A program made the translations under genes and the position numbers. The notes beneath the pieces are model-generated. The model ran no database searches, had not been told where the DNA came from, and saw nothing but the letters and a program-made list of their open reading frames with translations. A DNA stretch of 31,573 bases from Candidatus Gottesmanbacteria bacterium (GTDB lineage: Bacteria; Patescibacteriota; Microgenomatia; UBA10105; UBA927), in assembly GCA_016218185.1 (NCBI GenBank), contig JACREP010000046.1, positions 1 through 31,573 on the forward strand, in the 5' to 3' direction. Shown in pieces: positions 13,624-31,573 of the stretch. Numbering within the stretch: position 1 is the first letter of the stretch; each line of letters begins with the position of its first letter.

Positions 13624-13648
13624 CAGCGTTCATTTCACGGTGTACGTT
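13620..13648 (+). promoter_or_regulatory. Putative internal promoter for the 93-aa ORF and upp
   Basis: TTGACA (13620-13625, overlapping the pyrE stop), 17 bp, TACGTT (13643-13648). Confidence 0.5.
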
Positions 13649-13657
13649 TAGTAAACT

Positions 13658-13939
13658 ATGATAACGGATGCGGATATCAAAAAACTCAGGAAAGTCTTTG
13701 TCACGAAAGGTGACCTTCAGGCAATGGAGGAGCGACAGGATCGAAAATACGCCACGAAGGATGGAGTAAGGGAAGATATTCGAAATCTTAAGGAAGACCT
13801 TCTTGATGCAATGAAAAAGCAAAAGGAAGAAATTATTGAATCGGTTGCCGAGGTGATACGTGATGGCATTAATCCGATCCTCGATGATCACGAAGGGCGC
13901 ATAGCAAAATTAGAGAAACGCATGCCTGCAATTGCGTAA
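13658..13939 (+). CDS. Hypothetical small coiled-coil protein (TKxD repeats, HExRIxxLE C-terminus)
   Basis: Fills the pyrE-upp gap on the operon strand; heptad pattern; FVTKGDL and YATKDG motifs. No catalytic motif. Confidence 0.75.
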   Translation: MITDADIKKLRKVFVTKGDLQAMEERQDRKYATKDGVREDIRNLKEDLLDAMKKQKEEIIESVAEVIRDGINPILDDHEGRIAKLEKRMPAIA

Positions 13940-13953
13940 TATAATCACCGTGT

Positions 13954-14583: not shown

Positions 14584-14655
14584 ATATCGTCATATAAAAC
14601 TTCCTCAAAGTTATTTGTTAAGTAAAACCAAGTTTAGCGAATAAGAGTGGAAAAA

Positions 14656-14701
14656 ATCTACGACAAATTCATCAGCGGCCGCTGTCAAATTTGTAGTAGC
14701 T
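14656..14701. repeat. 46-bp palindromic element, copy at the 3' end of the PaaX-like gene (contains its stop codon)
   Basis: ATCTACGACAAAT-TCATCAGCGGCCGCTGTCAA-ATTTGTAGTAGCT; 39/46 identical to the reverse complement of 15518-15563. Confidence 0.9.
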
Positions 14702-15491: not shown

Positions 15492-15499
15492 ATGCGTTT

Positions 15500-15528
15500 A
15501 CTATAACAAAAATGTGAATCTACGACAA
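15500..15528 (-). promoter_or_regulatory. Promoter of the PaaX-like gene
   Basis: Minus strand TTGTCG, 17 bp, TG-n-TATAGT (extended -10); ATG 8 nt after the -10. The -35 lies inside the palindrome arm. Confidence 0.7.
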
Positions 15529-15563
15529 ATAGAACAACGGCCGCAGATGAATTTGTCGTAGAT
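15518..15563. repeat. 46-bp palindromic element, upstream copy (perfect 13-bp arms), candidate operator
   Basis: ATCTACGACAAAT-N20-ATTTGTCGTAGAT; overlaps the paaX-like -35 and ends 14 bp before the divergent purF -35. Confidence 0.9.
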
Positions 15564-15577
15564 ATAAAAGTGATGTA

Positions 15578-15607
15578 TTGACAGCGGTTTGCATTGTAGG
15601 GTATGCT
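15578..15607 (+). promoter_or_regulatory. Promoter of the pur operon
   Basis: TTGACA (15578-15583), 18 bp, TATGCT (15602-15607). Confidence 0.65.
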
Positions 15608-15618
15608 CCAGAAGGAAT

Positions 15619-15660
15619 ACGGTAATGCCCTTTGTTGCGATGAGGGAGTGCCGTTTTTTT
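15619..15660 (+). terminator. Terminator-like hairpin plus T7 in the purF leader
   Basis: ACGGTA (15619-15624) pairs with TGCCGT (15649-15654), inner CCCT/AGGG stem; T run 15654-15660. Confidence 0.55.
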
Positions 15661-15765
15661 ATTGCCTCTTTTTAAAACCAAGGTGTATTGGTTTGCGGTT
15701 AAAGCCAGAATCGTTACCTTTTAGTATTGATTGTAATATCTGGTTTACGCAGTTTATTTGGCAAT

Positions 15766-17325
15766 ATGATTGCTCCGACCGCCCTTGAAAAAAAACCTCT
15801 CTGGGACCACTGCGGAATCGTTGCCGCGTTTGCTCCAAGCAACATTGCGTTTTTTGAAAAAGGACTTGGCGGGCTTACTGTCTTGCAGACGCGCGGGTAT
15901 GACGGCGCGGGATTTTGTGCATTGGGGACGAACGGATTTCTCGTACAACACAAAGGGATTGGCATGGTGCGGGAAGTATTTACACCGGAAGTGGTTGCCG
16001 AATTTCAGGCGTTTCGTGCCCATACATGGATCTATCAGGTGCGTTATGGGACCAACGGCGGATTTACCCAAGACAATGTGCAGCCGCTGGTGACAAAACA
16101 TGAGGCAAGCGGGGATATCTTTATGGTCGTGCACAACGGGCAGTTTGCTCAAAACAGAGAGGCAAAACCGGTTAACGAGAGTGATACGTTGTTGTTTGCC
16201 CGGCGACTGGCCCAAAGTGCAGGAGGCAGTTGGGACGAACGGATTGTGGAACAGCTTTCCTCCATAAACGGCGCGTGGAGTTTAGTGATTGGAACCCGCG
16301 ATGCGCTGTATGTCGCCCGTGATCCGTGGGGGTTCCGCCCGCTCGTATACGGGCACCTGTGGGATCCGTCGCTACGGGAGTTTATTTGGGCTGCGGCGTC
16401 CGAAACAAGCGCATTGGATGCCATGGGGGTGACGGATCATTTTGAACTCCTGCCGGGGACTGTAGCGAAAGTCACATCTTCCGGATTGGAAATTTTGGAT
16501 AAAGTGAAGCACCGGCAACGGGCGCTTTGTATTTTTGAAAATATTTATCTTCATCATGGGGCAGGACGAGCCCATCTGCCGCGAACCAGTCCGCGTGCCA
16601 TCAAACGGTCCCCCACGGTAGATGACGTGCGGAGACGAAGCGGCAAAATTTTGGCGCGCGAGGCGCCGCTAACCAGAAGCGATGTGGATATGGTCATTGG
16701 CGTACCGGGTACGGGGATTGAGGGCGGTATGGCGTTTGCCAGGACACTGGATCTGCCGTACTTTCAGGCAATCACAGATAAAGAGACAAGCCTCACCGAG
16801 CAGAGAACTTTCATGACCGCCCGCATCGACAGCATTTATCAAAAAGTCCTGGATCACTTTAGGTTTGACGGGCAGGCTCTCAAAGGCCGGCGCGTCGTAC
16901 TGGTGGACGATTCCGTCGTCCGGGGGAATATCACCCGCGGCCTGGTGGGTCTCTTGAAGGAGCAGTATCACGTGTTGGCTGTTCATCTTCGTATTGTGAG
17001 CCCGCCGATTGACAAGGCATGCCATTTAGGCGTGAACACGAGGACTGCGGATGAGCTTATCGCTGCTCGTTTAAACGGCGATGTGGAAAAAATCCGTCAG
17101 TCGTTGGGAGCTGATTCTCTGGCCTATTTAAGCGGTCAGGGATTGAAAGAAGCCCTTACCGGCGACCCCCGTGCTTCTGGGTTTTGCATGGGGTGCATGG
17201 CCGGACACTTGCCGCCGTTTGATCCCTACGGAATGCCATATCGAAAGACCGGGCGCCCCGTTGTTTTCAAAAAACAAAACCTGCCGAAACTTTCCTATGA
17301 CCAACCGCAGAATTTTGTTTACTGA
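15766..17325 (+). CDS. purF: Amidophosphoribosyltransferase, propeptide and Fe-S type
   Basis: 15-aa propeptide then Cys (DH|CGIV), QTRG, VRYGT, HNG, ARDPWGFRPL, VDDSVVRG, Fe-S Cys pattern (CIFE, CHLG, CMGC). ATG 15766 preferred over TTG 15727. Confidence 0.96.
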   Translation: MIAPTALEKKPLWDHCGIVAAFAPSNIAFFEKGLGGLTVLQTRGYDGAGFCALGTNGFLVQHKGIGMVREVFTPEVVAEFQAFRAHTWIYQVRYGTNGGFTQDNVQPLVTKHEASGDIFMVVHNGQFAQNREAKPVNESDTLLFARRLAQSAGGSWDERIVEQLSSINGAWSLVIGTRDALYVARDPWGFRPLVYGHLWDPSLREFIWAAASETSALDAMGVTDHFELLPGTVAKVTSSGLEILDKVKHRQRALCIFENIYLHHGAGRAHLPRTSPRAIKRSPTVDDVRRRSGKILAREAPLTRSDVDMVIGVPGTGIEGGMAFARTLDLPYFQAITDKETSLTEQRTFMTARIDSIYQKVLDHFRFDGQALKGRRVVLVDDSVVRGNITRGLVGLLKEQYHVLAVHLRIVSPPIDKACHLGVNTRTADELIAARLNGDVEKIRQSLGADSLAYLSGQGLKEALTGDPRASGFCMGCMAGHLPPFDPYGMPYRKTGRPVVFKKQNLPKLSYDQPQNFVY

Positions 17326-17388
17326 CGGTACACACGTGTATACGTGTAACGGGACGTTCCGAGGCTGCCGCCCCAGGATAGGAGGAAT

Positions 17389-18276
17389 ATGAACATATGT
17401 ATCAGTTCCACATTCGTTGGCCGTGATGGATACGGCCTGGTAACGCGCATTCTTGACGCCGTTGCAGAAGGTAAACTTCCGGGAATTACCGTTTCTGCGG
17501 TTATTTCCACACGGGAGTCGGGAGATGATAAAACATCCGATCAACTTCTCGCCAGATTACATGAAGCATATCCGGATGTACCTATCATCGCATATTCCGC
17601 CAAGCAACACGGAAGAATTAAACGAAAGCCCAGTGAAAAAGAAAAAGACCTGTATGATCTGGCAATTCTTGAACGTCTTGGAGCAGCAGATCTCAATATC
17701 ATGGTCGGAGACATGATTATTAAAGGACCGGAGTGGTGTCGGAAGCTTCCCAGTCTCAACCTCCACCCGGATTTGCCGCTTTCTTTGGGAGGGACAGAGG
17801 GGATGTATTGGGAAGTGATTGGCAAGTGGGTGCGGGACGGCCGAGGGGAAATAGGCGGTATGATGCATTTGGCTATACCAACGCTTGATGCCGGCACGCC
17901 GATTGCATATTTCCGCCTGCCGGCGCGGGGCACCGTCAATGGGGTTGATTTAGCACCGCTCTGGGATACGTTGCCGAAAGAACCCGATAAGCGGGAGGCT
18001 CTGATACAGCAACAAGTTGCGCTCAAAGATAAACCGACCCACCGGTTGTTTGTTGAGCTTCGGCGGGCAGAGGCAGCGTTTGAACAAAGACTGGTGTTGA
18101 GTACGATTACGATGTTTGCCCAAGATGAACTCGGTATACAGGAAGGAAGAGTGGTTGATAAAAATGGACAACCGCTTGAGAACGGTTTAGATATAACAGA
18201 GTGGGTTGTAGATGGAGCTGCGGTTTGGCCGGGAGGAGAAAGTAGCGGGAAATCTCGCAGTCCAGAAACTCAATGA
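17389..18276 (+). CDS. Divergent long formyltransferase, probable GAR transformylase (PurN-like)
   Basis: NLHP motif and GGMMHLAIPTLDAGTPI (catalytic Asn/His/Asp pattern of the formyltransferase family); sits between purF and purD; about 100 aa longer than standard PurN. Confidence 0.75.
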   Translation: MNICISSTFVGRDGYGLVTRILDAVAEGKLPGITVSAVISTRESGDDKTSDQLLARLHEAYPDVPIIAYSAKQHGRIKRKPSEKEKDLYDLAILERLGAADLNIMVGDMIIKGPEWCRKLPSLNLHPDLPLSLGGTEGMYWEVIGKWVRDGRGEIGGMMHLAIPTLDAGTPIAYFRLPARGTVNGVDLAPLWDTLPKEPDKREALIQQQVALKDKPTHRLFVELRRAEAAFEQRLVLSTITMFAQDELGIQEGRVVDKNGQPLENGLDITEWVVDGAAVWPGGESSGKSRSPETQ

Positions 18277-19619
18277 AACCGTACGATGTCATCGGGTCCG
18301 GAACGCGCACGAAGAGTCTTGATGCCGTTCTTATGCTAGAGAAAAAGAAGCGTGGTAAAAAACAAACCGTTTTAGTCATCGGATCAGGCGGTCGGGAACA
18401 TGCCATCGGCTGGAAACTTGCCCGGTCTTTGCAGGTTGGTAAGCTCTATTTCGCACCGGGTAACCCCGGTACCGGAGAAATCGGGGAAAACGTGCCCATA
18501 AAAGCAGACGATATTGAGGGATTAGTTGCTTTTGCAAAAACAAAAAACATAGACATTACCGTTGTTGGCACTGAGGCATCTCTGGTTGCCGGCATCGTGG
18601 ACCGGTTTGCTAAAGACGGTTTTCGTATTTTTGGCCCGAACAAACAAGCGGCCCGTCTGGAAACAAGCAAAGCATGGGCAGTGGAATTCATGGCGCGGCA
18701 TGGAGTCCCGCACCCAATTTCGGAAATCTTTGACCATCCGGGCGAGGCGCTTGCGTACGCGGAAAAGCTCGGCGGGCGGTGTGTGGTGAAAGCAGACGGA
18801 CTTTGTCAGGGCAAAGGGGTATTTGTCTGCAATTGGCAGGAAGAAGCTCGCAGGGCAGTGACCATGCTTATGGTGGACAAACTTTTCGGATCGGCCGGAG
18901 ATCGCGTGGTGATTCAGGAAAAATTAGAAGGCAAAGAAGTTTCCGTGATGGCGTTTTGCGACGGGTCACGTGCAGTGCCGTTGGTTGCGGTACAAGACTA
19001 CAAGCGCGCATATGACGGCGATCATGGCCCAAACACCGGCAGCATGGGTTCTGCGGCCCCGGCGAAACACGTGGGCCCGACTCTTTTGAAGAAAATCCAC
19101 CGACTGCTCACCCTTGCGGTAAAGGGCATGGGAGATGAAGGAGCAGCCTACCGCGGTATCCTGTATGCGGGTTTGATGATTGTGGACGGCAAGCCGTACA
19201 TTTTGGAATTTAACTGCCGTTTCGGTGACCCGGAGACGCAGGTACAACTTCCTCTTCTTGAAACCGATCTGTTGCCGATTCTGGAGGCGTGTATCGATGG
19301 CCGGCTGACGGCAGAGATGGTGCGCTGGAAGAAGGCTTCGGCAGTCTGCGTGGTATTGGCTTCCGAAGGGTATCCGGGTATCTACAAAACCGGAGAGATT
19401 GTCCGCGGACTTAGGCAACCAGCCGGTAATCACGGATTTATGGTATTTCACGCAGGAACATCACGCTTTGGCACCGTTGTTCAATCAGCCGGAGGCAGAG
19501 TCCTGGGCGTGACCGCTACGGCACCGACCGCTCGCGCCGCGAGAAAAAAAGCGTACGCTGCAATCGGAAATCCCCTGTCCTTTGAAGGCATGCAGTACAG
19601 GAAGGATATCGGTAAATAA
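18273..19619 (+). CDS. purD: Phosphoribosylamine-glycine ligase
   Basis: LVIGSGGREHA, APGNPG, KADGLCQGKGV, QDYKRAYDGDHGPNTGSMG, EFNCRFGDPETQ, HAGT, GGRVLGV, YRKDIG. Alternative start ATG 18333. Confidence 0.97.
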   Translation: MKPYDVIGSGTRTKSLDAVLMLEKKKRGKKQTVLVIGSGGREHAIGWKLARSLQVGKLYFAPGNPGTGEIGENVPIKADDIEGLVAFAKTKNIDITVVGTEASLVAGIVDRFAKDGFRIFGPNKQAARLETSKAWAVEFMARHGVPHPISEIFDHPGEALAYAEKLGGRCVVKADGLCQGKGVFVCNWQEEARRAVTMLMVDKLFGSAGDRVVIQEKLEGKEVSVMAFCDGSRAVPLVAVQDYKRAYDGDHGPNTGSMGSAAPAKHVGPTLLKKIHRLLTLAVKGMGDEGAAYRGILYAGLMIVDGKPYILEFNCRFGDPETQVQLPLLETDLLPILEACIDGRLTAEMVRWKKASAVCVVLASEGYPGIYKTGEIVRGLRQPAGNHGFMVFHAGTSRFGTVVQSAGGRVLGVTATAPTARAARKKAYAAIGNPLSFEGMQYRKDIGK

Positions 19620-19621
19620 CT

Positions 19622-22501
19622 ATGGAGACGGTGACACGGATTGAAGTAGTCACGACCGTTTGTGATTCGCGTGCATTTGTTTTGTACAAGCGGCTTGTTT
19701 CCGACGGATTTCGTCTCGCGCGTGTCCGGATCACGGATGTATATACGATCGATAAAAAATTTGCAGCCGGTGAACTTGCAAAAATCACTTCTCTTCTTGC
19801 TCACCCGCTGACGCAACGGGCAAGCCATACTATGCCGCTATCACCGGCAACGTTTTCCTGGGCTATCGAAATCGGGTATCTTCCGGGAGTCACTGACAAC
19901 GTTGCCGCAACGGTCCGCGAAATGATAGAAGATTTTACCGGAAAGCCGTTTGGGCATCATGAAGGAGTCTATACGTCGCGCGTCATGTTTTTTTCCGGAT
20001 CATTGACAGAATCCGAAGTGACGCGGATCGCTGAGCGTCTTTACAATCCGTTAATTGAACGCGCGAGCGTTAAAAGTTTTGCCGCGTTTCAAAAAGATAA
20101 CGGTATGGGGAAAAACATTCCGCGTGTCGTATTGTCCGCACCGCCTGCTGCTGATGAAGTGAGTCTGTCCGTAAGCGATAAGGAGTTGGCCTCTATCGGA
20201 ACACTGGGTGTTGCAAACCGGAATGGCACGCGTCGCGGGCCGCTGGCACTTGATATCTCTTCCATGAAAACGATCCGGGCGTACTTTCGCAAGCGGAAAA
20301 GAAACCCGACCGATGTAGAGCTTGAGTCTCTGGCACAGACGTGGAGCGAGCACTGCAAGCATACTATTTTTAATAGCCCTATTGATGATATCAAAGAAGG
20401 ACTGTTCCGGCGATACATAAAAGGGGCAACAGAACGCATCAGAAAGAAAAAAGGAAAGAGGGATTTTTGTGTCAGCGTGTTTTCTGATAATTCAGGAGCC
20501 ATCGTGTTTGATAAGCAGTTTCTCGTAACGCACAAAGTGGAAACGCACAACAGCCCGTCGGCGCTTGACCCGTTTGGCGGGGCCTTAACCGGCATCGTGG
20601 GAGTCAACCGCGATGCCATAGGCTTTGGGTTGGGGGCTAAGCCGGTGATCAACACGTACGGATTTTGCCTTGCCGATCCCCGCGACAAGACGATACTTTT
20701 TCGGGATCTGAACAAAACACAACCGATGCTTTCTGAAGCGAGGATTATGGAAGGGGTTGTTGCGGGGGTAAACAGCGGCGGCAACTGTTCCGGCATACCC
20801 ACGCCGCAGGGATTTTTGTATTTTGACCGGCGTTTTCGCGGAAAACCCCTGGTGTTTGTGGGAACTGTTGGGCTAATCCCCAAAATCGTCAGCGGCAGGA
20901 GGTCATACGAAAAAAAAGCCCGCCCGGGTGATTACATCGTTATGGTAGGCGGCAGGGTCGGGCTTGACGGCATCCACGGCGCCACGTTTTCTTCACAAGC
21001 CTTAACCAGCGGCAGTCCGGCAACAGCAGTACAGATCGGGGACCCCATAACACAGAAAAAGTTCAGTGACGCGATCGTGGGTGAAGCCCGAGACATGGGG
21101 CTTTTCCACAGTATTACCGACAATGGCGCGGGGGGGTTATCCTGTTCGGTTGCGGAAATGGCCAAAGAGTCCGGCGGATGTTTGGTGGAGCTTGAGAAGG
21201 TGCCGCTTAAGTATCCCGGACTTGCAGCGTGGCAAATCTGGATTTCCGAATCGCAGGAACGCATGACCCTGGCGGTCCCGAAGCATAAATGGCAGGCGTT
21301 GTCGCGTCTATTGAAGAGGCACGGAGTTGTGGCCACGGTGATCGGCACATTTACCCGTTCCGGACGATGCGTGGTAACTTACCGGGGAACAACAGTCATG
21401 GATGTGGATATAAAATTTTTGCATGACGGATTGCCAGCGCGCCAGATGCGCACGAAACCCATGCCGGCGGTCCGGAGGTCACCAAAACTCCCTCACGCGT
21501 CCGATCTCACACATTTATTTCTCTCCATGCTTTCCCGGCCGAATATCTCTAGTTTTTCATTTATTTCCCGTCAGTATGACCACGAGGTGCAGGGCAGTTC
21601 GGTTCTCAAGCCCCTGCAGGGAAGAGGAAAAGTCAATGCCGATGCGACGGTGACGCGACCGGTTTTATCATCCTTGCGCGGCATTGTGTTGTCCCAGGGG
21701 CTGTACCCGTCGTACAGCGATATTGACCCATATCGCATGGCGGCGTGTAGTTTAGATACCGCAGTACGAAACATTGTGGCCGCAGGAGCTGACCCTGACC
21801 GTATTGCGCTTTTGGACAATTTCTGCTGGTGCTCATCGCAGGACCCGGGACGACTTTGGCAGCTCAAACAGGCCGCCAAGGCTTGCTATGACTACGCGGT
21901 TGCCTACGGCACGCCGTTTATTTCCGGAAAAGACAGTATGTTCAATGATTTTACTGGGTTTGATGCACAGGGTAAGCCGGTTGCTATTTCCATTCCGCCG
22001 ACTCTTCTTATTTCCGCCATCGGTGTTGTTGCTGATAGTACAAAGGTCGTGTCCCTCGATGCGAAATTTCCCGGGGATCTGGTGTATCTTTTGGGTGAAA
22101 CGTACGATGAGGTAGGTGGGATTAATGCAAAAACAAACAGGAAACTTTATTTTGCCCTCAGCAGTGCAATACAACGCGGACTTGTGGCTTCCAGCCAAAG
22201 CGTGCACCGCGGCGGCGTAGCTGTTGCCATCGCCAAAACAGCACTGGCTGGGCTGTACGGAGTTGACGTGACGATTGACCGAGCGCCGTTTTCCGAAAGC
22301 CAGGGGCGTATTGTGGTGACCGTGGCGCCGCAAAACGCGAGGGCATTTGAAAACGTTATGACTGGTAATGCGTATGCCTGCATCGGCTCCGTGACAGAGA
22401 GGAAACGAATTCTTATGAAGGATCATGGAGGCAGAGTAATTGTTGATAGTTCACTTCATTATGCCCAGAGGTCATATCTGTCAACATTTAAGGAATATTG
22501 A
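19622..22501 (+). CDS. purL: FGAM synthase PurL with N-terminal fused PurS-like domains
   Basis: N-terminal ~150 aa with PGVTDN and NPLIE; WSEHCKH, KVETHNSPS, GGRVGLDGIHGAT, QIGDP, DNGAGG, SESQERM, QYDHEV, ISGKDSM; 959 aa. Confidence 0.95.
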   Translation: METVTRIEVVTTVCDSRAFVLYKRLVSDGFRLARVRITDVYTIDKKFAAGELAKITSLLAHPLTQRASHTMPLSPATFSWAIEIGYLPGVTDNVAATVREMIEDFTGKPFGHHEGVYTSRVMFFSGSLTESEVTRIAERLYNPLIERASVKSFAAFQKDNGMGKNIPRVVLSAPPAADEVSLSVSDKELASIGTLGVANRNGTRRGPLALDISSMKTIRAYFRKRKRNPTDVELESLAQTWSEHCKHTIFNSPIDDIKEGLFRRYIKGATERIRKKKGKRDFCVSVFSDNSGAIVFDKQFLVTHKVETHNSPSALDPFGGALTGIVGVNRDAIGFGLGAKPVINTYGFCLADPRDKTILFRDLNKTQPMLSEARIMEGVVAGVNSGGNCSGIPTPQGFLYFDRRFRGKPLVFVGTVGLIPKIVSGRRSYEKKARPGDYIVMVGGRVGLDGIHGATFSSQALTSGSPATAVQIGDPITQKKFSDAIVGEARDMGLFHSITDNGAGGLSCSVAEMAKESGGCLVELEKVPLKYPGLAAWQIWISESQERMTLAVPKHKWQALSRLLKRHGVVATVIGTFTRSGRCVVTYRGTTVMDVDIKFLHDGLPARQMRTKPMPAVRRSPKLPHASDLTHLFLSMLSRPNISSFSFISRQYDHEVQGSSVLKPLQGRGKVNADATVTRPVLSSLRGIVLSQGLYPSYSDIDPYRMAACSLDTAVRNIVAAGADPDRIALLDNFCWCSSQDPGRLWQLKQAAKACYDYAVAYGTPFISGKDSMFNDFTGFDAQGKPVAISIPPTLLISAIGVVADSTKVVSLDAKFPGDLVYLLGETYDEVGGINAKTNRKLYFALSSAIQRGLVASSQSVHRGGVAVAIAKTALAGLYGVDVTIDRAPFSESQGRIVVTVAPQNARAFENVMTGNAYACIGSVTERKRILMKDHGGRVIVDSSLHYAQRSYLSTFKEY

Positions 22502-22534
22502 CATATTAACATGTTAACATATTAATATATTCAT
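22495..22534. repeat. Five imperfect 8-bp tandem repeats (consensus ATATTAAC) between purL and purQ
   Basis: ATATTGAC ATATTAAC ATGTTAAC ATATTAAT ATATTCAT; includes TTGACA and palindromes TTAACATGTTAA and ATGTTAACAT. Confidence 0.7.
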
Positions 22535-22537
22535 TTT

Positions 22538-23338
22538 ATGAAAAAACCCAAAGCGATGATATTTTCCGGCTACGGGCTTAACTGTGAAGGGGAAACCAAA
22601 TATGCTTTTGAGCTTGCCGGCGCAGGCGCCGACATTGTTCACATCAATGACCTTGTGGATGGACGCAAAAAACTTTCGAGCTATCAAATTCTGGCATTTC
22701 CCGGAGGGTTTGCCTACGGTGACGACACGGGTGCGGGGAATGCGTATGCAGGGAAACTGAAGAATCATCTTTGGGAGGAAATAGTGAGTTTCGTCCCGGG
22801 TAATCATTTAATAATCGGCATTTGCAACGGGTGTCAGATTCTTGTAAATCTCGGGCTTTTCCCCGTCAGCAGCAAGCAGTACGAGGAGAGGGAAGCGGCA
22901 CTGCTTCAAAACGACTCGGGCCGTTATACGGTACGCTGGACGGACGTGAAAAGCGAAAGTTCCTCGCCCTGGCTTGCGGGCATCGATACCATGATGCTTC
23001 CGATTGCTCACGGTGAGGGAAAGTTTTATGCAACAGACAGAGTGCTTGCGACAATGAGAGAGAAAAAAATGATTGCTCTTCGGTATATTCACGGTGAGAT
23101 ATGCGCGTATCAGGGGCTTCCTGCCAATCCCACGGGGACGCTTGATGATATTGCAGCAATTACTGACCAAACCGGAAAGATTTTAGGTATCATGCCGCAC
23201 CCGGAGCGGGCCATATTCTTTACGCAGTTACCCCATTGGCCGTACCTTAAGGAGCAATATGTACGACGTAACATGCCGTTGCCTAAAGAGGGACCGGGGC
23301 TCAAAATATTTCAAAATGCCGTCGCCTATTTTGCGTAA
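22538..23338 (+). CDS. purQ: FGAM synthase glutaminase subunit
   Basis: GLNCEGET, PGGFAYGD, GICNGCQIL, NDSGRY, PIAHGEG, MPHPER triad. Confidence 0.97.
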   Translation: MKKPKAMIFSGYGLNCEGETKYAFELAGAGADIVHINDLVDGRKKLSSYQILAFPGGFAYGDDTGAGNAYAGKLKNHLWEEIVSFVPGNHLIIGICNGCQILVNLGLFPVSSKQYEEREAALLQNDSGRYTVRWTDVKSESSSPWLAGIDTMMLPIAHGEGKFYATDRVLATMREKKMIALRYIHGEICAYQGLPANPTGTLDDIAAITDQTGKILGIMPHPERAIFFTQLPHWPYLKEQYVRRNMPLPKEGPGLKIFQNAVAYFA

Positions 23339-23341
23339 ATC

Positions 23342-24352
23342 ATGAAACATCAACACTTTACGATCGCCACTCTGGGCAGCCACAGCGCTTTGCAAATACT
23401 CAAAGGAGCTAAGGATGAAGGGTTTAAAACGCTTCTGGTGGTGACGAAACATACGGAACCTTTTTATCGGCGGTTCACTTTTATTGATGACTTCATTGTC
23501 CTTCGTGCATTGGGTGATGTTATTTCTATAGAAAAAAGTTTACGAAAACGAAACGTCATCCTCATTCCGCATGGATCCTTTGTGGCGTATTTGGGCAAAG
23601 TTGGCAATAAACGGTTAACCGTACCCTATTACGGCAATAAAAAAGTCTTGGATTGGGAGGCAGACCGTACGCTCCAACGGCGTTGGCTAACCCGAGCAGG
23701 AATACATCAACCGAAACAATATAGACCCGATGAATCGATCCGCTTTCCCGTCATTGTGAAATCTTTTGGCGCTGCAGGCGGGTCGGGATATTTTATTGCA
23801 GCAAACAAGGCAGGATTAGACAAAAAAATTAAAGCAATGAAGCAGCATAAATACGTTATCCAACAATATGTCGTAGGGGTCACGTGCTACCTGCATTATT
23901 TTTATTCTCCTCTCACAAAATCGGTGGAGCTGATGAGCATTGACCGGCGGTATGAAACCAACGCGGACGCGCTCGGAAGAATTCCCCTTACCTATCAAAC
24001 CCCCTCTCTGGACCCAAGTTTCGTCGTTGTGGGCAACTCCCCACTCGTACTGCGCGAATCGCTTTTGCCGGAAGTACTCGCTATGGCTGAGCGCATTGTC
24101 TCTGCATCCCAAAAACTTATTGACCCGCGCGGTCTATTTGGCCCTTTTTGTCTGGAAACGATCATTACGCCGGATCAAAAATTTTATGCGATGGAGATAT
24201 CATGCAGGATTGTCGCCGGTACAAACTTATTTATTGAGGGTTCGCCCTACACGTGGTTAACGTATAATGAGCCGATGAGTACCGGCAGAAGAATTGCGCG
24301 GGAAATTAAAACCGCAATCAACAAAAACAAATTGGCTCTGCTTACCGGTTAA
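23342..24352 (+). CDS. purP: FAICAR synthetase PurP (archaeal-type ATP-grasp AICAR formyltransferase), paralog 1
   Basis: IATLGSHSALQILKGAKDEGF, PHGSFVAY, YFYSPL, DRRYETNAD, GNSPLVLRESLLP, GPFCLE, EISCRIVAGTN, MSTGRRIAREI. Confidence 0.9.
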   Translation: MKHQHFTIATLGSHSALQILKGAKDEGFKTLLVVTKHTEPFYRRFTFIDDFIVLRALGDVISIEKSLRKRNVILIPHGSFVAYLGKVGNKRLTVPYYGNKKVLDWEADRTLQRRWLTRAGIHQPKQYRPDESIRFPVIVKSFGAAGGSGYFIAANKAGLDKKIKAMKQHKYVIQQYVVGVTCYLHYFYSPLTKSVELMSIDRRYETNADALGRIPLTYQTPSLDPSFVVVGNSPLVLRESLLPEVLAMAERIVSASQKLIDPRGLFGPFCLETIITPDQKFYAMEISCRIVAGTNLFIEGSPYTWLTYNEPMSTGRRIAREIKTAINKNKLALLTG

Positions 24353-24355
24353 TAT

Positions 24356-25444
24356 ATGAAAATACCGACGATTGCCGTTTTGGGAAGCCACAGCGCCCTG
24401 GATGTTTGCCGCGGCGCCAAAGACGAGCGACTTGAGACGCTTGTAATTGCAGAAATCGGACGTGAGCAAACGTATGCTTCCTATTACAAATCCCGGCCAG
24501 GCATCGGATGTGTGGATGAATGTATGGTACTTGATCATTTTTCCGATATTCTTTCGCCGGATTTCCAAAAGAAGCTGCGGGCAAAAAACGTCATTTTCAT
24601 TCCCCACCGCTCGTTTGAAGCGTATCTTAATTTTGACTATCGCGCGATTGAAAACGATTTTCACGTTCCCATGTTTGGAAATAAGTATCTTCTGAAAATA
24701 GAAGAACGCCAAAGCCGGCCGAATCAGTATGATCTTTTAGAGGAAGCCAATATCCGATATCCCAAACAGTATAGTTCTCCTAAGGCGATCGACCGGTTGT
24801 GCATGGTAAAAGTATCTGAACGGACGCGTGTTTTTGAACGAGCATTTTTTCTCGTTTCCGGTTATCAGGACTATGTGAAAAAAACCAAAGAAATGATGGG
24901 TAACCAAAAAATTACCGGACAAGCCCTTGCCGCATCAGTCATTGAGGAATTTGTGGTTGGGACGCCGGTCAATTTCAATTTCTTTTACTCTCCTATTAAT
25001 AAACGTCTTGAACTTATGGGAACAGACACCAGAAGGCAGACAAATCTTGACGGAGTGCTTCGGGTTCCTGCGACATATCAGGAGGCCGTACTGAAATCTC
25101 TGCCGCTTACGTTTGAGGAATCAGGGCATATAGCAGTTACTGTTCTTGAGTCAATGCTGGAGAAAGCATTCAGTCTGGGTGAAGCATTTGTCGCAGCGAC
25201 GAAACGGTTATATCCACCGGGCATCATCGGACCGTTTGCCCTTCAGTCAATTATTACGTCAGGGCCTCCGAAAAAGGATATTGTCGTCATCGACGTATCT
25301 CCCCGCATGCCGGGGTCTCCCGGAATTTCTGCGACTCCTTACGGTGCATATCTGTATGGGAAATCAATGTCGGTAGGCAGACGGGTTGCAAAAGAAATCC
25401 GTGAAGCGTATACAAAGCATGCTATGGAAAGGATCATTACCTAG
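24356..25444 (+). CDS. PurP-like ATP-grasp protein, paralog 2 (divergent)
   Basis: IAVLGSHSALDVCRGAKDE, PHRSFEAY, FYSPI, DTRRQTNLDG, GHIAVTVLESMLE, GPFALQ, DVSPRMPGSPG, MSVGRRVAKEI. Confidence 0.85.
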   Translation: MKIPTIAVLGSHSALDVCRGAKDERLETLVIAEIGREQTYASYYKSRPGIGCVDECMVLDHFSDILSPDFQKKLRAKNVIFIPHRSFEAYLNFDYRAIENDFHVPMFGNKYLLKIEERQSRPNQYDLLEEANIRYPKQYSSPKAIDRLCMVKVSERTRVFERAFFLVSGYQDYVKKTKEMMGNQKITGQALAASVIEEFVVGTPVNFNFFYSPINKRLELMGTDTRRQTNLDGVLRVPATYQEAVLKSLPLTFEESGHIAVTVLESMLEKAFSLGEAFVAATKRLYPPGIIGPFALQSIITSGPPKKDIVVIDVSPRMPGSPGISATPYGAYLYGKSMSVGRRVAKEIREAYTKHAMERIIT

Positions 25445-25447
25445 TGT

Positions 25448-26857
25448 ATGCAAATACCTGATTTTTCCAATTACGTTTCTGCGCTTTCTTGGCGGTATGG
25501 GAGTGCCCCGATGCGGGGTATTTTCAGTGAACAAAATAAGTACAAAATCTGGCGCAGCATTTGGGTGGCACTGGCTGAAGCACAGTATAAAGCGGGATTA
25601 GTAAGTCTTGCGGAACTGAATGATCTTAGAAAACATAAAGATGACATGGATATAGAAAAAATCCTTGAGATAGAGAAAGAAACGAACCATGACCTGGTGG
25701 CAGCTATCCGCGAGTTTGCCCAAAAGGCCAAAATTGGCGGCGGCAAAATACACTTTGGAGCAACCAGTATGGATATCGTGGATAATGCCGACGCAATTCG
25801 CATACGCCAAGCACTGGCCTTGACTCAAAAAAATCTCGTTACACTCCTTGCATTGTTTGCAAGGCAAATTCACGCGTATGCAAATATTCCTTGTATGGGA
25901 TACACGCATCTGCAACCTGCGGAACCGATAACCGTGGGATACCGGCTCGCGTTCTATGCCCAGGATTTGCTCACCGATTTCACATTTCTGCAGTTTGTCC
26001 AATCGGTCTTCCAGGGTAAGGGACTGAAGGGAGCTGTCGGTACAAGGGCAAGTTATCAGGTAATCCTTAAAGGGACCTGCATGTCTGCCTCTGAATTTGA
26101 TGACCGCATCACCAAGGAACTCGGAATATCGGGAGCTCTTATTACCTCTCAAGTGTACCCGCGCAAGTACGACTATCTTGTGGTATCCCTTCTGGCAAGC
26201 ATTGCCTCCTCCGTAGCCAAATTTGCAGGGGACCTTAGAATTCTTCAGTCAGCAGGCATCGGCGAATGGAGTGAACCGTTCGGGAAAAAACAGGTAGGAT
26301 CTTCTGCTATGCCGTTTAAAAGAAATCCCATTAACTGCGAAAAAATCTGTTCGCTTGCGCGCTATGTGGCGGCCATCCCCTCAGTAGCACTGGAAAATGC
26401 GACATTGAGCTACCTGGAACGAACACTGGATGATTCTGCAAATAAACGGATCGTCGTTGCTGAGGGTTTTTTAGCGTTGGATGAAATACTCACTACTGCC
26501 CAAAAGATCGTTGATGGTTTGGTCATCAATACCCATCGCATCGCCCACAACGTCAACCAATATGCTCCATTTGCAGCAACGGAAACGCTTCTTATCATGC
26601 TTGTCAAACACGGTGCAGACCGCCAAAAAATGCATGAACTTCTCCGCACCATTTCCATGAAATCATCGGAGGCAATTCAGGCGGAAAAACCAAATCCCAT
26701 GAATCAACTGATCAAAGAGAATCCGACCATCCGTAAGTATTTAAAAGCAGCCGAAATTCATGAGTCGCTTGACGTTGCAAACCATGTCGGCGATGCACCG
26801 GAGCGCGCATTGAAACTGGTAAAAGAAATTAAAAAAACAATGAAGAATTATGGATAA
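25448..26857 (+). CDS. purB: Adenylosuccinate lyase
   Basis: HFGATSMD, GYTHLQPAEP, KGAVGT, signature GSSAMPFKRNP, LERTLDDSANKR. Confidence 0.97.
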   Translation: MQIPDFSNYVSALSWRYGSAPMRGIFSEQNKYKIWRSIWVALAEAQYKAGLVSLAELNDLRKHKDDMDIEKILEIEKETNHDLVAAIREFAQKAKIGGGKIHFGATSMDIVDNADAIRIRQALALTQKNLVTLLALFARQIHAYANIPCMGYTHLQPAEPITVGYRLAFYAQDLLTDFTFLQFVQSVFQGKGLKGAVGTRASYQVILKGTCMSASEFDDRITKELGISGALITSQVYPRKYDYLVVSLLASIASSVAKFAGDLRILQSAGIGEWSEPFGKKQVGSSAMPFKRNPINCEKICSLARYVAAIPSVALENATLSYLERTLDDSANKRIVVAEGFLALDEILTTAQKIVDGLVINTHRIAHNVNQYAPFAATETLLIMLVKHGADRQKMHELLRTISMKSSEAIQAEKPNPMNQLIKENPTIRKYLKAAEIHESLDVANHVGDAPERALKLVKEIKKTMKNYG

Positions 26858-27362
26858 ACCCAAAATCGCGGTTCTTTTGGGGAGCGATTCCGATCTTCCG
26901 GTCGCACGGGATGCGCTTGCGACGCTCGATGAGTTTCACGTACCCTTTGATGTGCGGATCTTTTCTGCCCATCGAAGTCCTGACGATACCGTAACCTATG
27001 TGAAGAAGGCCACGAGCAGCGGAGTGTTACTTTTTATTGCGGCAGCAGGAGGCGCTGCGCACCTGGCAGGGGTTATTGCTGCGCACACCACTCTTCCGGT
27101 TATCGGTATTCCCATACAGACCAAATCGCTGAGAGGCGTTGATTCGCTGTATTCTACCGTGCAGATGCCGCCCGGAGTGCCGGTGGCCACCGTCGGCATC
27201 AATGCCGCCAAAAACGCAGGGCTTTTGGCCATACAAATACTTGCAGTCGGCGATGCGCGGCTTACGAAGCAGTTAAAAACGTATAAGACACAGCTTGCAA
27301 AAGGCGTACGAAAGAAAAACACAGCGCTTGAGCGCTTGGGCTGGAAAAAATATGATATCTAA
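26850..27362 (+). CDS. purE: N5-CAIR mutase (class I PurE)
   Basis: [46 protein letters not shown]. Confidence 0.97.
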
Positions 27363-28389
27363 GGCAACGATTATTCGATCCCTGCCGTATGTGCTCAAAA
27401 CGATTGATATTCCCGGTTTGGGAAAAAAATATCAGGGCAAAGTGCGCGATTTTTATATCAAAAACGGTAAACGGATTCTTATCACGACGGACCGTCAGTC
27501 AGCCTTTGACGTTATCCTTGGACATATTCCGTTTAAGGGCGCAGTACTTAACCTGCTTTCTGCATTTTGGTTTGAGGAAACAAAAGATATCGTCCCAAAC
27601 CATATGATTTCTGTACCCGATCCCAACGTCATGATTACCCGGGATTGTACGCCCATACCCGTGGAGATGATTGTCCGCGGATATATTTCGGGGGTTACCA
27701 AAACATCGATTTGGTACTCGTACGAGCGTGGTGAACAGCTTATTTACGGTATACCGTTTCCGGATGGGCTCAAAAAAAACCAAAAGTTACCAAATCCTGT
27801 TATAACGCCAACAACACACCCTTTGGCCGGAAGTACTGTGCATGACGAGCGCTTGACCCGGGAGCAAATTATCAAGCAAAAGATTGTTCCCAAAAAGCTC
27901 TATGAGCAAATGGAGCGCGCTGCCTTGGCGCTATTTGCCCGGGGGACGCGCATCTGTGAGCGTCGGGGACTTATTCTGGTGGATACAAAGTACGAGTTTG
28001 GCATGTATAAGGGAAAACTTACCCTTATTGACGAGATTCACACGCCGGATTCATCACGTTTTTGGACGAAGGAGAGCTATGATCGCATATTTCATACCGA
28101 TGAAAAAGGCGAAGCCCCGAACCAACGCTCCTCCGACGCGAGGACGCAGACCTCGGGAGGAGGGAAGTTTGGTTCTGGGGAGCCGGATAATTTCGATAAG
28201 GAATTCTTGCGTCTCTGGTATGCCCAGCGCGGGTACCGCGGCGAAGGATCGCCACCAAAAATGCCCACAGAGCTCGTCATTGCACTCGCAAGGCGCTATA
28301 TTGCCGTCTACGAAAAAATCACAGGCAGGAAGTTTCGAGCATTCTCGTATCCGATTAATCAACGAATTATTCAGGCACTCACCACATGA
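27352..28389 (+). CDS. purC: SAICAR synthetase (long type) with a ~24-aa insertion
   Basis: [65 protein letters not shown] 27352 preferred over 27295. Confidence 0.96.
28122..28154 (+). repeat. Short element within the in-frame insertion of purC, related to the pyrF insert
   Basis: CCAACGCTCCTCCGACGCGAGGACGCAGACCTC, flanked by CCCGA...TCGGG inverted ends (28116-28120 / 28153-28157). Confidence 0.65.
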
Positions 28390-29486
28390 CGAGCAGCCCC
28401 CTCACGTATCGATCAGCTGGTGTTTCCTACGAAACCCTTGATACACTGAAGCGTTTGGCTCAGCTGGAAGGCAAAAAAAGCGCGGTTCATACAGAGTTAA
28501 AAGAAGTTTCCCAGAGTCGTGGTGAGTCGGCGTACGTGTGGGAAGAAAAAGATTGCTATCGTGCATTGGTGATAGAAGGATTAGGGACGAAAAATCTGAT
28601 TGCGGATGCGATGCGGAAGATTACCGCCAGGACGTATTACGACGCCATAGCACAGGATACCGTGGCAATGATTGTAAATGACCTGATTGTGGTGGGAGCC
28701 AAGCCGCAAGTCGTGAATGCCTATTTCGGCGTGGGAAATTCTGATTGGTTTTCCGATAAAAAACGGGCCGGCGATTTAGTCACCGGATGGGCAAAAGCGT
28801 GTAAGCTGGCCGGAGCGGTATGGGGAGGAGGAGAGACCCCGACTCTTAAAGACATCATTAAACCGGATACGATAGATTTGGCCGGATCTGCTATTGGCAT
28901 CATCAAGCCGAAGCGCCGACTGATCTTAGGAGATAAACTTACTGCCGGAGATGCAATTCTTCTTATTGAAAGCAACGGCATTCATGCAAATGGTTTAACA
29001 CTCGCAAGAGCAATTGCCCAGAAGTTTCCCCGCGGTTATGCGACAAAGCTACCGAGCGGTTCACGCTATGGCGAGGCGCTCCTTCGTCCCACGCATATCT
29101 ATACCCAGATAGTAGAAGACCTATTTCTCAATGGTATCGAGGTCCACTATATGGTGCACATTACCGGTCACGGTTGGCGCAAACTCATGAGGGCAAATCG
29201 GAGCTTTCGGTACATAATAGATGATATAGGAAAGGTACCGCCGATTTTTGGATTTATCCAAACGCATTCTGGAATGAATGACCGCGATATGTACGCCACG
29301 TTTAACATGGGTGCAGGGTTTGCACTTTTCGTGCCGTCAGATGAACGAGAGAAGGCGCAACGCATTATTGCCCGGAATAAACTCGCATGTTGGCGCGCAG
29401 GAACAGTAAAAAACGGCCCAAAACAGGTTCTCATCCGTCCCAAAGCCATTACCTTTTCTGCTGGTAGTCTTCGTGTGCGGCCGTAG
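28386..29486 (+). CDS. purM: AIR synthetase (phosphoribosylformylglycinamidine cyclo-ligase)
   Basis: YRSAGV, EGLGTK (DGVGTK variant), AMIVNDL..VGAKP, GGETP, SNGIHANG, HITGHG, TFNMGAGF. Confidence 0.95.
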   Translation: MTSSPLTYRSAGVSYETLDTLKRLAQLEGKKSAVHTELKEVSQSRGESAYVWEEKDCYRALVIEGLGTKNLIADAMRKITARTYYDAIAQDTVAMIVNDLIVVGAKPQVVNAYFGVGNSDWFSDKKRAGDLVTGWAKACKLAGAVWGGGETPTLKDIIKPDTIDLAGSAIGIIKPKRRLILGDKLTAGDAILLIESNGIHANGLTLARAIAQKFPRGYATKLPSGSRYGEALLRPTHIYTQIVEDLFLNGIEVHYMVHITGHGWRKLMRANRSFRYIIDDIGKVPPIFGFIQTHSGMNDRDMYATFNMGAGFALFVPSDEREKAQRIIARNKLACWRAGTVKNGPKQVLIRPKAITFSAGSLRVRP

Positions 29487-29512
29487 GCTTCAAAACGAGC
29501 TGCTTTACTTTT

Positions 29513-29541
29513 TTGACATGATCCCGTATCTTTGGTAACAT
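29513..29541 (+). promoter_or_regulatory. pyrG promoter, probably leaderless
   Basis: TTGACA (29513-29518), 17 bp, TAACAT (29536-29541); ATG begins at the 6th nt after the -10. Confidence 0.75.
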
Positions 29542-29546
29542 AGATT

Positions 29547-31202
29547 ATGCCCACGAAATTTATCTTCGTTTCCGGTGGAGTGATATCAGGCCTTGGGAAA
29601 GGCGTCACCACTGCCTCCATCGCCCTTCTTCTTCAAAACAGAGGATACTGCATAACTCCCGTCAAGTGTGAAAACTACCTCAATACGGATGCGGGGCTTA
29701 TCAACCCTATCGAACACGGCGACCCGTTCCTTTGCGAAGACGGCACCGAGGCGGATATGGACATGGGAACGTATGAAAAGTTTTTGGATAAAAACATGGA
29801 ACGCCACAACTTCATCACCATGGGACAAATCTATAAAACAGTCATTGAGCGCGAACGGAACTTCGGATACGACGGAGAGGATGTCGAGGCGATCCCGCAT
29901 GTGACCAATGAAATTCTCAAACGGATTCAGGAGGCCGGAGAAAAAGGAAATGCGGACATTGTGGTGGTGGAACTTGGGGGAACTGCCGGTGAGTATCAAA
30001 ATGCGCTCTATTATGAGGCGTCACGCATCCTTTCCCGCAACAAAAAGAACTCGGTGATTCACGTGCATGTCAGCTACCTGCCCACGCCGCAGCACCTGGG
30101 CGAGCCTAAAACCAAACCCACGCAGCTTTCCGTGCGCACGCTCAACTCTATGGGGATCCAGCCGGATTTTATCGTGACGCGTTCAGAAAAACCCATGGAT
30201 GCGCGCCGGCGGGCCCGGTTTGCACTATTTTGCAACGTGGATCCGGAAAACGTGATCGACAGCGTCGACATGAAAACGCCCTACGAGGCACCTCTCCACC
30301 TGGCCAAGCAAAAGATAGATGAAAAAATTTTGGATATGTTGGGACTGCCGCACAAAGAACTCGACACGAAACGTTGGGAAGAAATGGTAGCGAAGGTGTA
30401 TAACAAAAAAGCGAAGTCGGTTACCATCGCGATTGTGGGCAAATACTTTGCCACCGGCGAATATCAGCTGCGTGACAGCTACGCGGCGCTCATGGATGCG
30501 ATTGACCACGCCAGTTGGGAGAAAGGAGTGGATACTACGGTCCAATGGATTCAGGCGGAGAGGTTGGAAAAGGGTAACTTGACGGAACTTGAAGGCGTTG
30601 ACGGCATCATTGTACCGATCGGCTGGGGACCGCGTGGGGTTGAAGGAAAAATCATGGCCATCGAGTACGCGCGCGTCCGTAAAATTCCTTATTTGGGTCT
30701 CTGCTATGGTATGCAGCTGGCAATTGTTGAATATGCACGGAACGTATTGGGTCTGAAAGGCGCCCATACGCTTGAGTGCGATGCGGATACTGTCCATCCG
30801 GTGATTCACATGATTTTAGGGCAGCAGGATATTCTCAAACGCCGTGCCTACGGCGGCACGATGCGACTGGGGCGTTGGGAATGCCGTGTCGCCCCGGCAA
30901 CCATAGCGGACGCCAGTTATACGGCGTACAAGGCTTATGATGATCCGAAAAATCGTATCGTCGGTGAGCGCCACCGGCACCGCTATGAATTTAATGACGC
31001 ATATGTCAAGCAGTTTGAAAAGTCAGGGATGATATTGGCCGGGAGGAGCGTGATTGAACAACTGGTCGAGATTATTGAGCTTCCTAAAACGAAACATCCG
31101 TTTTTCCTCGGCACACAGTATCATCCGGAATATCGAAGCCGGCCGCTCCGGCCCCACCCTATATTTCTTTCCTACATAGAGGCTTGTTCTTCCCGAGGCT
31201 AA
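29547..31202 (+). CDS. pyrG: CTP synthase
   Basis: [59 protein letters not shown]. Confidence 0.98.
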
Positions 31203-31212
31203 CTGGTACAAT
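31184..31212 (+). promoter_or_regulatory. rplS promoter, probably leaderless
   Basis: TTGTTC (31184-31189), 17 bp, TACAAT (31207-31212); ATG begins at the 7th nt after the -10. Confidence 0.65.
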
Positions 31213-31218
31213 ATCGCC

Positions 31219-31573
31219 ATGGCAAATGTTACTGTGTGGACCGACGGAGAGGGTGAGACAAAGAAAACTGCCGCGTTTCATGTCGGCGATACCGTGCGCG
31301 TACACTATAAACTCATAGAGAAGGAAAAAGTCTCAGGCAAGACCAAACGCGAGGTGCATGAGGAAACTCACGAGCGCACACAAGTTTTTGAAGGCATCGT
31401 GCTTGCGATCCGCGGGTCAGGCGAAAACACCATGTTCACGGTACGCAGAATCGGCGCCGGAGCAATCGGAATTGAGCGCATATTTCCGCTTGCTTCCCCG
31501 TGGATTAAAAAACTTGAGGTAAAAAAACACGGGGAGGTGCGTCGCGCCAAACTTTATTATCTCCGTGGCCGCA
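31219..31573 (+). CDS. rplS: 50S ribosomal protein L19 (3' truncated by window edge; not in the ORF track)
   Basis: Read by hand: MANVTVW...[15 protein letters not shown][[17 protein letters not shown]][15 protein letters not shown]...[19 protein letters not shown]...[12 protein letters not shown]. Confidence 0.96.

Follow-up and report, generated by a model that had tools for sequence, protein, structure and literature searches.

Probable bacterial orthologues of the archaeal PurP II and PurP III pair in a patescibacterial purine operon

The PurP tandem and its place in the purine operon

The subject of this analysis is a pair of adjacent genes in a 31,573-nucleotide stretch of DNA, referred to here as the window, which is contig C8 of a 0.70-Mb assembly of 127 contigs (82.6% complete). 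The nearest named relatives of the window are Candidatus Gottesmanbacteria and other Microgenomates-type Patescibacteria, and the host is a bacterium, since the gamma and beta subunits of an F-type ATP synthase are encoded in the window. The plus strand carries a pyrimidine cluster (carA to pyrE, then upp). Beyond it, a PaaX-like gene runs on the opposite strand and is followed by a tightly packed plus-strand purine (pur) operon of 11 genes, all intact and covering about 13.8 kb, in the order purF, PurN-like, purD, purS-L, purQ, P1, P2, purB, purE, purC and purM, with pyrG next. The two genes that we designated P1 (23342-24352, plus strand, 336 amino acids) and P2 (24356-25444, plus strand, 362 amino acids) encode ATP-grasp paralogs of the PurP family, each with a DUF1246 and a DUF1297 domain. 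At the purQ/P1, P1/P2 and P2/purB junctions alike, the stop codon is followed by 3 nt and an ATG, which fits coupled translation of purQ, P1, P2 and purB. The operon covers steps 1-9 of purine synthesis plus exactly one extra gene, P2; all of its other genes could be assigned.

P1 and P2 share 34% protein identity. The P1 matches to DUF1246 and DUF1297 were 2e-42 (144.5 bits) and 4.9e-65 (219 bits), and those of P2 were 3.2e-40 (137.4 bits) and 3.4e-59 (200 bits), compared with gathering cut-offs of 25 and 23.8; the NCBIfam equivalog cut-offs were far from being reached (the pair scored 371 versus 590 bits and 269 versus 556 bits). Among solved relatives, P1 matched P. furiosus PF1517 best (2r84, 2.7e-98), followed by M. 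jannaschii MJ0136 (2r7k, 8.7e-86). P2 matched 2r7k at 1.7e-65, and the matches of the two proteins to 2r84 and 2r7k span E-values from 1e-41 to 2.7e-98. The translation of P1 contains the motifs PHGSF, RYETN, GN and EISCRIVAGTN, with which PHRSF, RRQTN, GH and DVSPRMPGSPG of P2 align in position. The first-pass annotation, made from the letters of the window and a list of open reading frames (ORFs), had described two adjacent ATP-grasp paralogs with these motifs at 23342-25444. Intact plus-strand ORFs are present at exactly these coordinates, and the Pfam domains, the motif alignment and the type signatures given below bear the description out, P1 being a canonical PurP and P2 its divergent paralog.

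Archaeal PurP proteins are of three main types, of which type I (cluster Ia) includes the sole enzyme of proven activity, M. jannaschii MJ0136 (MjPurP), and of which PurP II (cluster Ib) and PurP III (cluster II) always co-occur in genomes (PMC3261824, PMC6486802). According to Brown et al., cluster II is marked by a His at position 258 and by a loop that is two residues longer and lacks glycines (PMC3261824). P1 has the features of clusters Ia and Ib, namely a (K/R)GG(K/R)G-type loop after the ATP-grasp lysine, Asn at 258 and the formyl contacts. Its loop reads GAAGGSGYF, with four glycines conserved in 46-47 of the 47 P1-type sequences and with Ala and Ser, in this copy, as the residues that are otherwise basic on either side of the glycines. 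Asn232, His14 and Arg289, which correspond to MjPurP Asn258, His27 and Arg314, are conserved in 47, 46 and 47 of the 47 sequences, and P1 retains the pocket His, Ser, Glu and Arg of MjPurP. P1 thus shares with MJ0136 (PDB 2R7K-2R7N) the ATP-grasp fold, the Gly-rich loop, His27, Ser94, Asn258, Ser266, Arg314 and the Glu of the Glu-x-Ser-x-Arg motif. These features make P1 a candidate formate- and ATP-dependent synthetase of FAICAR (5-formamidoimidazole-4-carboxamide ribonucleotide). At residues 172-177 of P1 (window 23855-23872), the Glu of the IQEY hinge, conserved in 37 of the 47 P1-type sequences, is replaced by Gln or Arg here and in the closest relative, L031.

P2 carries both marks of cluster II. 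Its loop, SERTRVFERAFF, aligns to GAAGG--SGYF of P1 and is two residues longer, basic and without the glycines, and His258 stands at the position of MjPurP Asn258 in all 53 P2-type sequences. P2 keeps the counterparts of MjPurP His27, Ser94, Ser266 and Arg314, but differs from MJ0136 in that the Gly before Ser94 is Arg, Asn258 is His, the motif Glu is Asp and the Gly-rich loop is missing. The specific, fixed changes relative to P1 are Arg in place of Gly before Ser94, His in place of Asn at 258, Gln in place of Glu at 297, Asp in place of Glu at 313 and a new Glu-Arg loop. Across the 53 P2-type sequences, in which mean column identity was 41%, 14 residues were invariant (H12, R85, R118, K152, E161, R162, E197, R226, H258, S266, Q297, D313, R317 and G320). 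This invariance argues that P2 is not a decayed pseudoenzyme. The invariant set includes the counterparts of the MjPurP contacts to the formyl group and the ribotide phosphate, together with the ATP-grasp lysine, the hinge glutamate and an acidic metal ligand. P2 therefore looks like an enzyme with an invariant pocket of its own. The retained nucleotide-binding residues suggest that ATP or ADP still binds to it, and its reaction could be ATP-assisted. The carboxamide is the nucleophile of ring closure, and a His at the site where it is held agrees with a role in cyclisation.

The relationship of the two genes to archaeal PurP was assessed in a tree of 92 full-length members, comprising the window, loci from the Candidate Phyla Radiation (CPR) and Eremiobacterota, and 50%-identity representatives drawn from 1.84 billion proteins; PF0421 was left out, the cluster look-up labelled the organism for one of ten representatives, and a further search did so for P0127. 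The tree was divided by a split with 100% support in the Shimodaira-Hasegawa-like approximate likelihood ratio test (SH-aLRT) into clade A, which carries the P1 signature and contains P1, and clade B, which carries the P2 signature, contains P2 and includes proteins of Bathyarchaeota (P0127) and Aenigmatarchaeota (in the P0144 cluster). Together with the type signatures, this split identifies the tandem as a PurP II plus PurP III pair and not as a recent duplication, and the genome carries two PurP genes, one of each type. Almost certainly, P1 and P2 are orthologous to the PurP II (cluster Ib) and PurP III (cluster II) proteins of archaea. The archaeal parallel drawn in the first-pass annotation is thus real, and closer than it had stated. 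A transfer between archaea and bacteria, also proposed there, is plausible, as the P1 and P2 clades each mix bacterial and archaeal members. The archaeal pair (PF1517, PDB 2R84-2R87, with PF0421) likewise consists of two anciently diverged, co-occurring paralogs that are often adjacent, often lie beside purB or other pur genes and often occur with no known IMP (inosine 5'-monophosphate) cyclohydrolase. It differs in context, the host here being a mesophilic-type, ultra-small, uncultured bacterium of groundwater type with a bacterial-style 11-gene operon, a PurN-like gene and FolD-based folate metabolism.

Contact between the two proteins was assessed by complex prediction, using a mark that 58 of 80 solved complexes attained, as did 2 of 110 mismatched pairs. 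The P1-P2 score was 0.33, compared with 0.01 for the best of three controls; runs agreed in at least 89% of contacts, and the predicted local distance difference test (pLDDT) score of the partner was at least 85. Scores at or below 0.60 that reached the mark came from 7 of those 80 solved complexes and from both passing mismatches. Because homo-hexamers of the PurP family have been solved in the PDB, the pass may reflect memory or likeness and not a true hetero-contact. The prediction weakly supports P1 and P2 touching each other.

IMP cyclohydrolase genes and the distribution of the pair

Domain searches of the window found neither PurH nor PurO. In the whole assembly there was no match to PF01808 (PurH) or PF07826 (PurO), and the sole match to PF02142 (MGS) was carB, with no PurJ. 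Because PF02142 missed or barely saw the divergent PurJ of CPR bacteria (it missed two of three genomes), a profile for stand-alone CPR PurJ, designated A1, was built from the PurJ proteins of split-purH genomes, which keep the catalytic Lys, Tyr, Asp and Lys. Profile A1 recovered its positive control at 1.4e-98, had no match in this genome and found nothing in ten PurH-less genomes. PurH, PurO and PurJ were likewise not found in seven relatives that are 81-100% complete, six of them at 92-100% (G005, G008, G009, which is 100% complete, G025, G026, G027 and G040), and neither PurH nor PurO was found in the Gottesmanbacteria assembly G441 (1.3 Mb, largest contig 1.22 Mb). The PF07826 search was empty for this genome and for 20 related pair-bearing genomes, with no bacterial PurO used as positive control. 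Since the same absence is seen in relatives up to 100% complete and in G441, assembly incompleteness does not explain it.

The genome-wide search for purH, purO and purJ, on which the first-pass annotation had staked its proposal, thus returned none. The annotation had also called the operon otherwise complete. Its point about the missing cyclohydrolase stands, whereas the completeness needs qualifying: since purK gave no match in the genome (tblastn with the PurK of a relative), it holds only if N5-carboxyaminoimidazole ribonucleotide (N5-CAIR) forms without PurK. The genes for consumers of IMP, purA-like and guaA, are present in the genome. Over 30 min at 60 C and pH 7.3, no spontaneous cyclisation of FAICAR took place (PMC6797443), so closure without an enzyme is not a comfortable explanation. 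FolD is present, which indicates that the host has folate one-carbon metabolism, yet a formate-type enzyme would serve step 9; formate-tetrahydrofolate ligase was not found in the genome search. The setting also differs from that of MJ0136, a single gene product that works beside PurO, in that there are two paralogs here and no PurO was found.

PurP was found in 8 more of 40 relatives, always as two copies in the same operon order, and neither PurH nor PurO was found in seven of these eight. The operon of G036 has a full PurH immediately behind P2. The search was extended to 401 evenly sampled Patescibacteria. PurP was present in 28, both types in 25 of the 28, and PurH (full-length or as purV plus purJ) in 22 of those 25. 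Eremiobacterota (WPS-2 / Vulcanimicrobiota), which are free-living and have genomes of 3 Mb, commonly carry the pair too (loci L069, L070, L075, L083, L101, L107 and others), with a P1 that is 56-58% identical to the window P1. Four complete Eremiobacterota chromosomes (3.0-3.6 Mb) each encode one P1-type and one P2-type protein and have a full PurH elsewhere, and the tree places the Eremiobacterota P1 and P2 with those of CPR bacteria. The occurrence of the pair in Eremiobacterota is new here. PurP has been stated to be restricted to archaea (Cruz et al., PMC6486802), and our literature search found no paper describing PurP in bacteria, or purP in CPR or Eremiobacterota. The presence of the pair in at least two bacterial phyla, Patescibacteria and Eremiobacterota, corrects the archaea-only view.

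Altogether, 26 of 37 pair-bearing bacterial genomes keep both PurH activities, 11 are without both and none has one half; the 37 genomes are inter-related and the sample is enriched for the order of the window, so that these counts describe a pattern and are not a statistic. That PurH is either kept or lost as a whole fits its complete redundancy with the pair. In the order of the window, the absence of PurH is a derived loss, which arose separately in at least G332 and perhaps G146. The first-pass annotation had missed that PurH is retained by most of the bacteria with the pair, so that the pair is no simple stand-in for it. Whole or as purV plus purJ, PurH covers steps 9 and 10, co-occurs with the pair in most bacteria and adjoins it in G036. 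It differs in its unrelated folds and in being folate-dependent and not formate/ATP-dependent, and was not found in this genome or its order.

With the exception of three genomes that have a solitary P2-type gene, all genomes examined have P2 within the pur operon, after P1 and before purB; in G005, G026 and G252, purA stands between P1 and P2. The three solitary copies, in G221 (L025:9560-10708), G402 (L026:9003-10136) and G144 (C7:423-989), come from one family and from genomes that are 99% complete. No P1, PurH, PurJ or PurC was found in these three genomes and no pur genes near the P2-type gene, which is surrounded by genes for fn3/Big_1 surface proteins and unknowns. The complete signature is retained in the G402 copy, and five invariant residues are lost from the G221 copy. 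Either the solitary P2 serves some purpose by itself, or it is what remains of a pathway otherwise lost.

The pur operon is missing from most genomes of the family of the window. In a DNA search of the same-genus genome G001, window positions 13000-14584 and 29504-31573 matched neighbouring stretches of contig C2 (C2:35491-39349), and nothing between them matched there. The absent block (14585-29503, about 14.9 kb) contains the PaaX-like cassette and the entire pur operon, which are gone as one piece, leaving upp and pyrG about 0.5 kb apart. The adjacency of pyrG to purM or purC is conserved in other families, as in G005 and G026, and the state of G001 is therefore probably a deletion.

Function of the pair

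We tentatively favour a reading in which P1 and P2 are passed on together, are translated one directly after the other from the pur operon and would jointly supply a formate- and ATP-dependent way of completing purine synthesis. With PurH lost entirely in the lineage, the pair would have to take 5-aminoimidazole-4-carboxamide ribonucleotide (AICAR) through to IMP. P1, which retains every residue of the characterised M. jannaschii enzyme, would most likely form FAICAR via formyl phosphate. P2 would close the ring from FAICAR to IMP, probably inside a P1/P2 hetero-oligomer; the assignment draws on its retained ribotide and formyl residues, ATP-grasp lysine and acidic metal ligand, its His at the Asn site, and the Arg-rich loop that takes the place of the Gly-rich one. 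The parts of this reading differ in strength. The identity of both genes, their operon context, the lack of known cyclohydrolases and the distribution across genomes are observed, whereas activity of P1, binding between P1 and P2 and cyclisation by P2 are inferred. A role of the pair in step 9 is likely, whereas the claim that the pair suffices for AICAR to IMP, with P2 carrying out closure, falls a little short of an even chance. We are more doubtful still, while regarding it as possible, that PurP III-type proteins at large are a third, ATP-grasp-derived class of IMP-forming enzyme, acting either as a cyclohydrolase with His258 as the base on the carboxamide or as an ATP-dependent cyclo-ligase. 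The fold of P2 is ATP-grasp, and not that of the MGS-like IMP cyclohydrolase with its catalytic Lys, Tyr, Asp and Lys. Both mechanistic options of the first-pass annotation, ring closure by the second paralog and an obligate hetero-oligomer, had been published for archaea and so are not new: a cyclohydrolase role for the second PurP was proposed by Brown et al. in 2011 (PMC3261824) and a PurP heterohexamer by Cruz et al. in 2019 (PMC6486802). No report on PurP II/III function after 2019 was found in our literature search. The coexistence of PurH and the pair in most pair-bearing bacteria has a precedent at step 3, where a folate-dependent transformylase (PurN) and a formate/ATP-dependent ATP-grasp ligase (PurT) occur side by side; PurT differs in being a single protein and in closing no ring.

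Several points weigh against assigning ring closure to P2. PurH retention in 26 of the 37 pair-bearing bacterial genomes is what would be expected if the pair carried out step 9 alone. The ATP-grasp Lys, Glu-Glu hinge and Asp metal ligand that P2 keeps are superfluous for a simple cyclohydrolase. No PurP II or PurP III protein is known to have shown activity in an assay, and P. furiosus PF1517 and PF0421 each lacked FAICAR synthetase activity in vitro, as Zhang (2008) is cited in two later papers (PMC3261824, PMC6486802). In Archaeoglobus, the pair is accompanied by a stand-alone PurJ that is active (PMC6797443, PMC6486802), which likewise agrees with a pair confined to step 9. The solitary P2-type genes of three genomes indicate that P2 may have a job outside the pathway, and the pur operon is dispensable in the genus of the window. 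Homology searches, finally, are blind to a non-homologous cyclohydrolase, and the window genome is only 82.6% complete.

The main alternative is a two-subunit FAICAR synthetase acting at step 9 only, which we consider somewhat unlikely. P2 would then be an activating or regulatory subunit, or a second catalytic one, and closure would fall to PurH or PurJ where these are present and, in this lineage, to a cyclohydrolase that is unrelated to PurH and PurO and encoded outside the operon. Such an arrangement agrees with the frequency of PurH among the 37 genomes, with the full PurH right after P2 in G036 and with the pairing of PurP II/III and an experimentally active PurJ in Archaeoglobus (PMC6797443). 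The co-occurrence of the two types and the weak contact support fit a heteromer, the inactivity of each P. furiosus protein alone fits a requirement for a partner, and almost any nucleotide-monophosphate binder could act as cyclohydrolase (Brown et al., PMC3261824). However, a new enzyme would be needed in each PurH-less lineage, that is, for at least two to three losses in Patescibacteria and again in Crenarchaeota and Pyrococcus. P2 is the sole unassigned gene of the PurH-less operons, and its invariant substrate-type pocket exceeds the needs of a scaffold. If the pair served step 9 only, the cyclohydrolase half of PurH would be indispensable and bacteria with the pair plus PurJ alone, as in Archaeoglobus, would be expected; there was none among the 37. 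It is improbable that P2-type proteins have an activity separate from steps 9 and 10, on another ribotide or in salvage, with the pathway ending at FAICAR or leaning on a host. The three 99%-complete genomes with a solitary P2-type gene and without PurC, P1, PurH or nearby pur genes are in keeping with such an activity, as are the typical host dependence of CPR bacteria and the loss of the whole operon from G001. Yet P2 lies between P1 and purB in the pur operon of every other genome examined, eleven intact genes over about 13.8 kb are unlikely to be retained for a dead-end product, the IMP consumers purA and guaA are present, and one solitary copy, having lost five otherwise invariant residues, looks like decay. 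An ordinary purH, purJ or purO in the unassembled 17% of the genome is very improbable. The completeness of 82.6%, the 127 contigs and the failure of PF02142 alone to detect CPR PurJ in two of three genomes would allow for one, but seven relatives (81-100% complete) and the Gottesmanbacteria assembly share both the operon and the absence, and the purpose-built PurJ profile was also empty.

The reading in which P2 closes the ring bears on a wider gap. The ring-closing enzyme of Crenarchaeota and many Thermococcales has been without an identity since at least 2008-2011, and PurP III as an IMP-forming enzyme would, if true, fill the missing step in Crenarchaeota, Pyrococcus and PurH-less bacteria. 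Study of PurP II/III has so far dealt with hyperthermophile proteins only, while those of bacteria belong to organisms that live at low temperature and have very small genomes. Because PurH has been removed cleanly in some of these lineages and kept in their relatives, ring closure by P2 is directly testable in them, and they provide a good test bed.

Cyclohydrolase candidates and the remaining operon genes

Other candidates for the ring-closing enzyme were considered and rejected. A SLOG/LOG-like (LDcluster4) gene at 11016-11609 lies in the pyrimidine cluster and overlaps the end of pyrD by 4 nt. Its orthologues were found only in G008, G019, G025 and G441 (4 of 23 other genomes searched); it is absent from most PurH-less pair genomes and present in one pair-less genome. 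An MGS-domain match in G008 is not a stand-alone PurJ; it belongs to an argininosuccinate synthase with a C-terminal MGS-like domain (L021:6965-8584), which adjoins a carAB-pyrBC cluster. Short PF01808 matches in G205, G252 and G267 could not be taken as PurV only, as purJ lies directly downstream in each. PurH is split in these three genomes (L022:1847-3581 in G252, L023:1456-2963 in G205 and L024:2304-3882 in G267) into purV followed by purJ, the reverse of the fused domain order. Eight further CPR genomes (G081, G090, G115, G147, G175, G230, G322 and G420) have short frames of about 200-245 amino acids whose match to the PurH model is confined to roughly its first 60 positions. These genomes have no transformylase domain and no PurP, and three of the frames contain in-frame stops; the frames may be stand-alone PurJ-like genes without a step-9 partner.

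All of the remaining genes of the pur operon are on the plus strand. The first, purF (15727-17325), encodes an amidophosphoribosyltransferase with GATase and PRTase domains (TIGR01134, 4.4e-60). It is followed by an ORF of 295 amino acids (17389-18276) with a weak TIGR00639 match and no Pfam match, an atlas feature score of 0.96 and a structural template modelling (TM) score of 0.81 to Formyl_trans_N clusters; clear PF00551 genes fill the same operon slot in G005 and G009. This ORF was considered as the missing ring-closing enzyme and rejected, its PurN-type fold and PurN operon slot assigning it to step 3 as a divergent PurN-like formyltransferase. Next come purD (18273-19619; TIGR00877, 3.1e-142), purL with an N-terminal PurS-like extension (19622-22501; AIRS, AIRS_C and FGAR-AT linker domains) and purQ (22538-23338; GATase_5, 6.4e-74), the last of these directly upstream of the PurP II-type P1.

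Downstream of the PurP III-type P2 lie purB (25448-26857; Lyase_1 and ADSL_C) and purE (26850-27362; AIRC, 2.2e-60). The purE product has the motif SAHRSP, which we take to be of the class I (N5-CAIR mutase) type. A purK gene was confirmed in G005, and an unscanned gene of similar size (375-376 amino acids) lies beside purE in G025, G026 and G027. The long form of purC (27295-28389) matches SAICAR_synt at 1.3e-59 from residue 45, and the true start is probably the ATG near 27352. The last gene of the operon is purM (28386-29486; TIGR00878, 6.1e-63; AIRS and AIRS_C), with pyrG next at 29547. Fused pur genes were seen in several of the related genomes. PurD is fused at its N-terminus to a PfkB-family sugar/nucleoside kinase domain of about 300 amino acids in the pur operons of G008 (L014:15631-17805) and G025 (L016:13709-15916), PurN is fused to PurD in G036 (L019:91-1992), and PurC is fused to PurM in G005 (L013:3427-5514) and probably also in G026 (L017:12849-14960).

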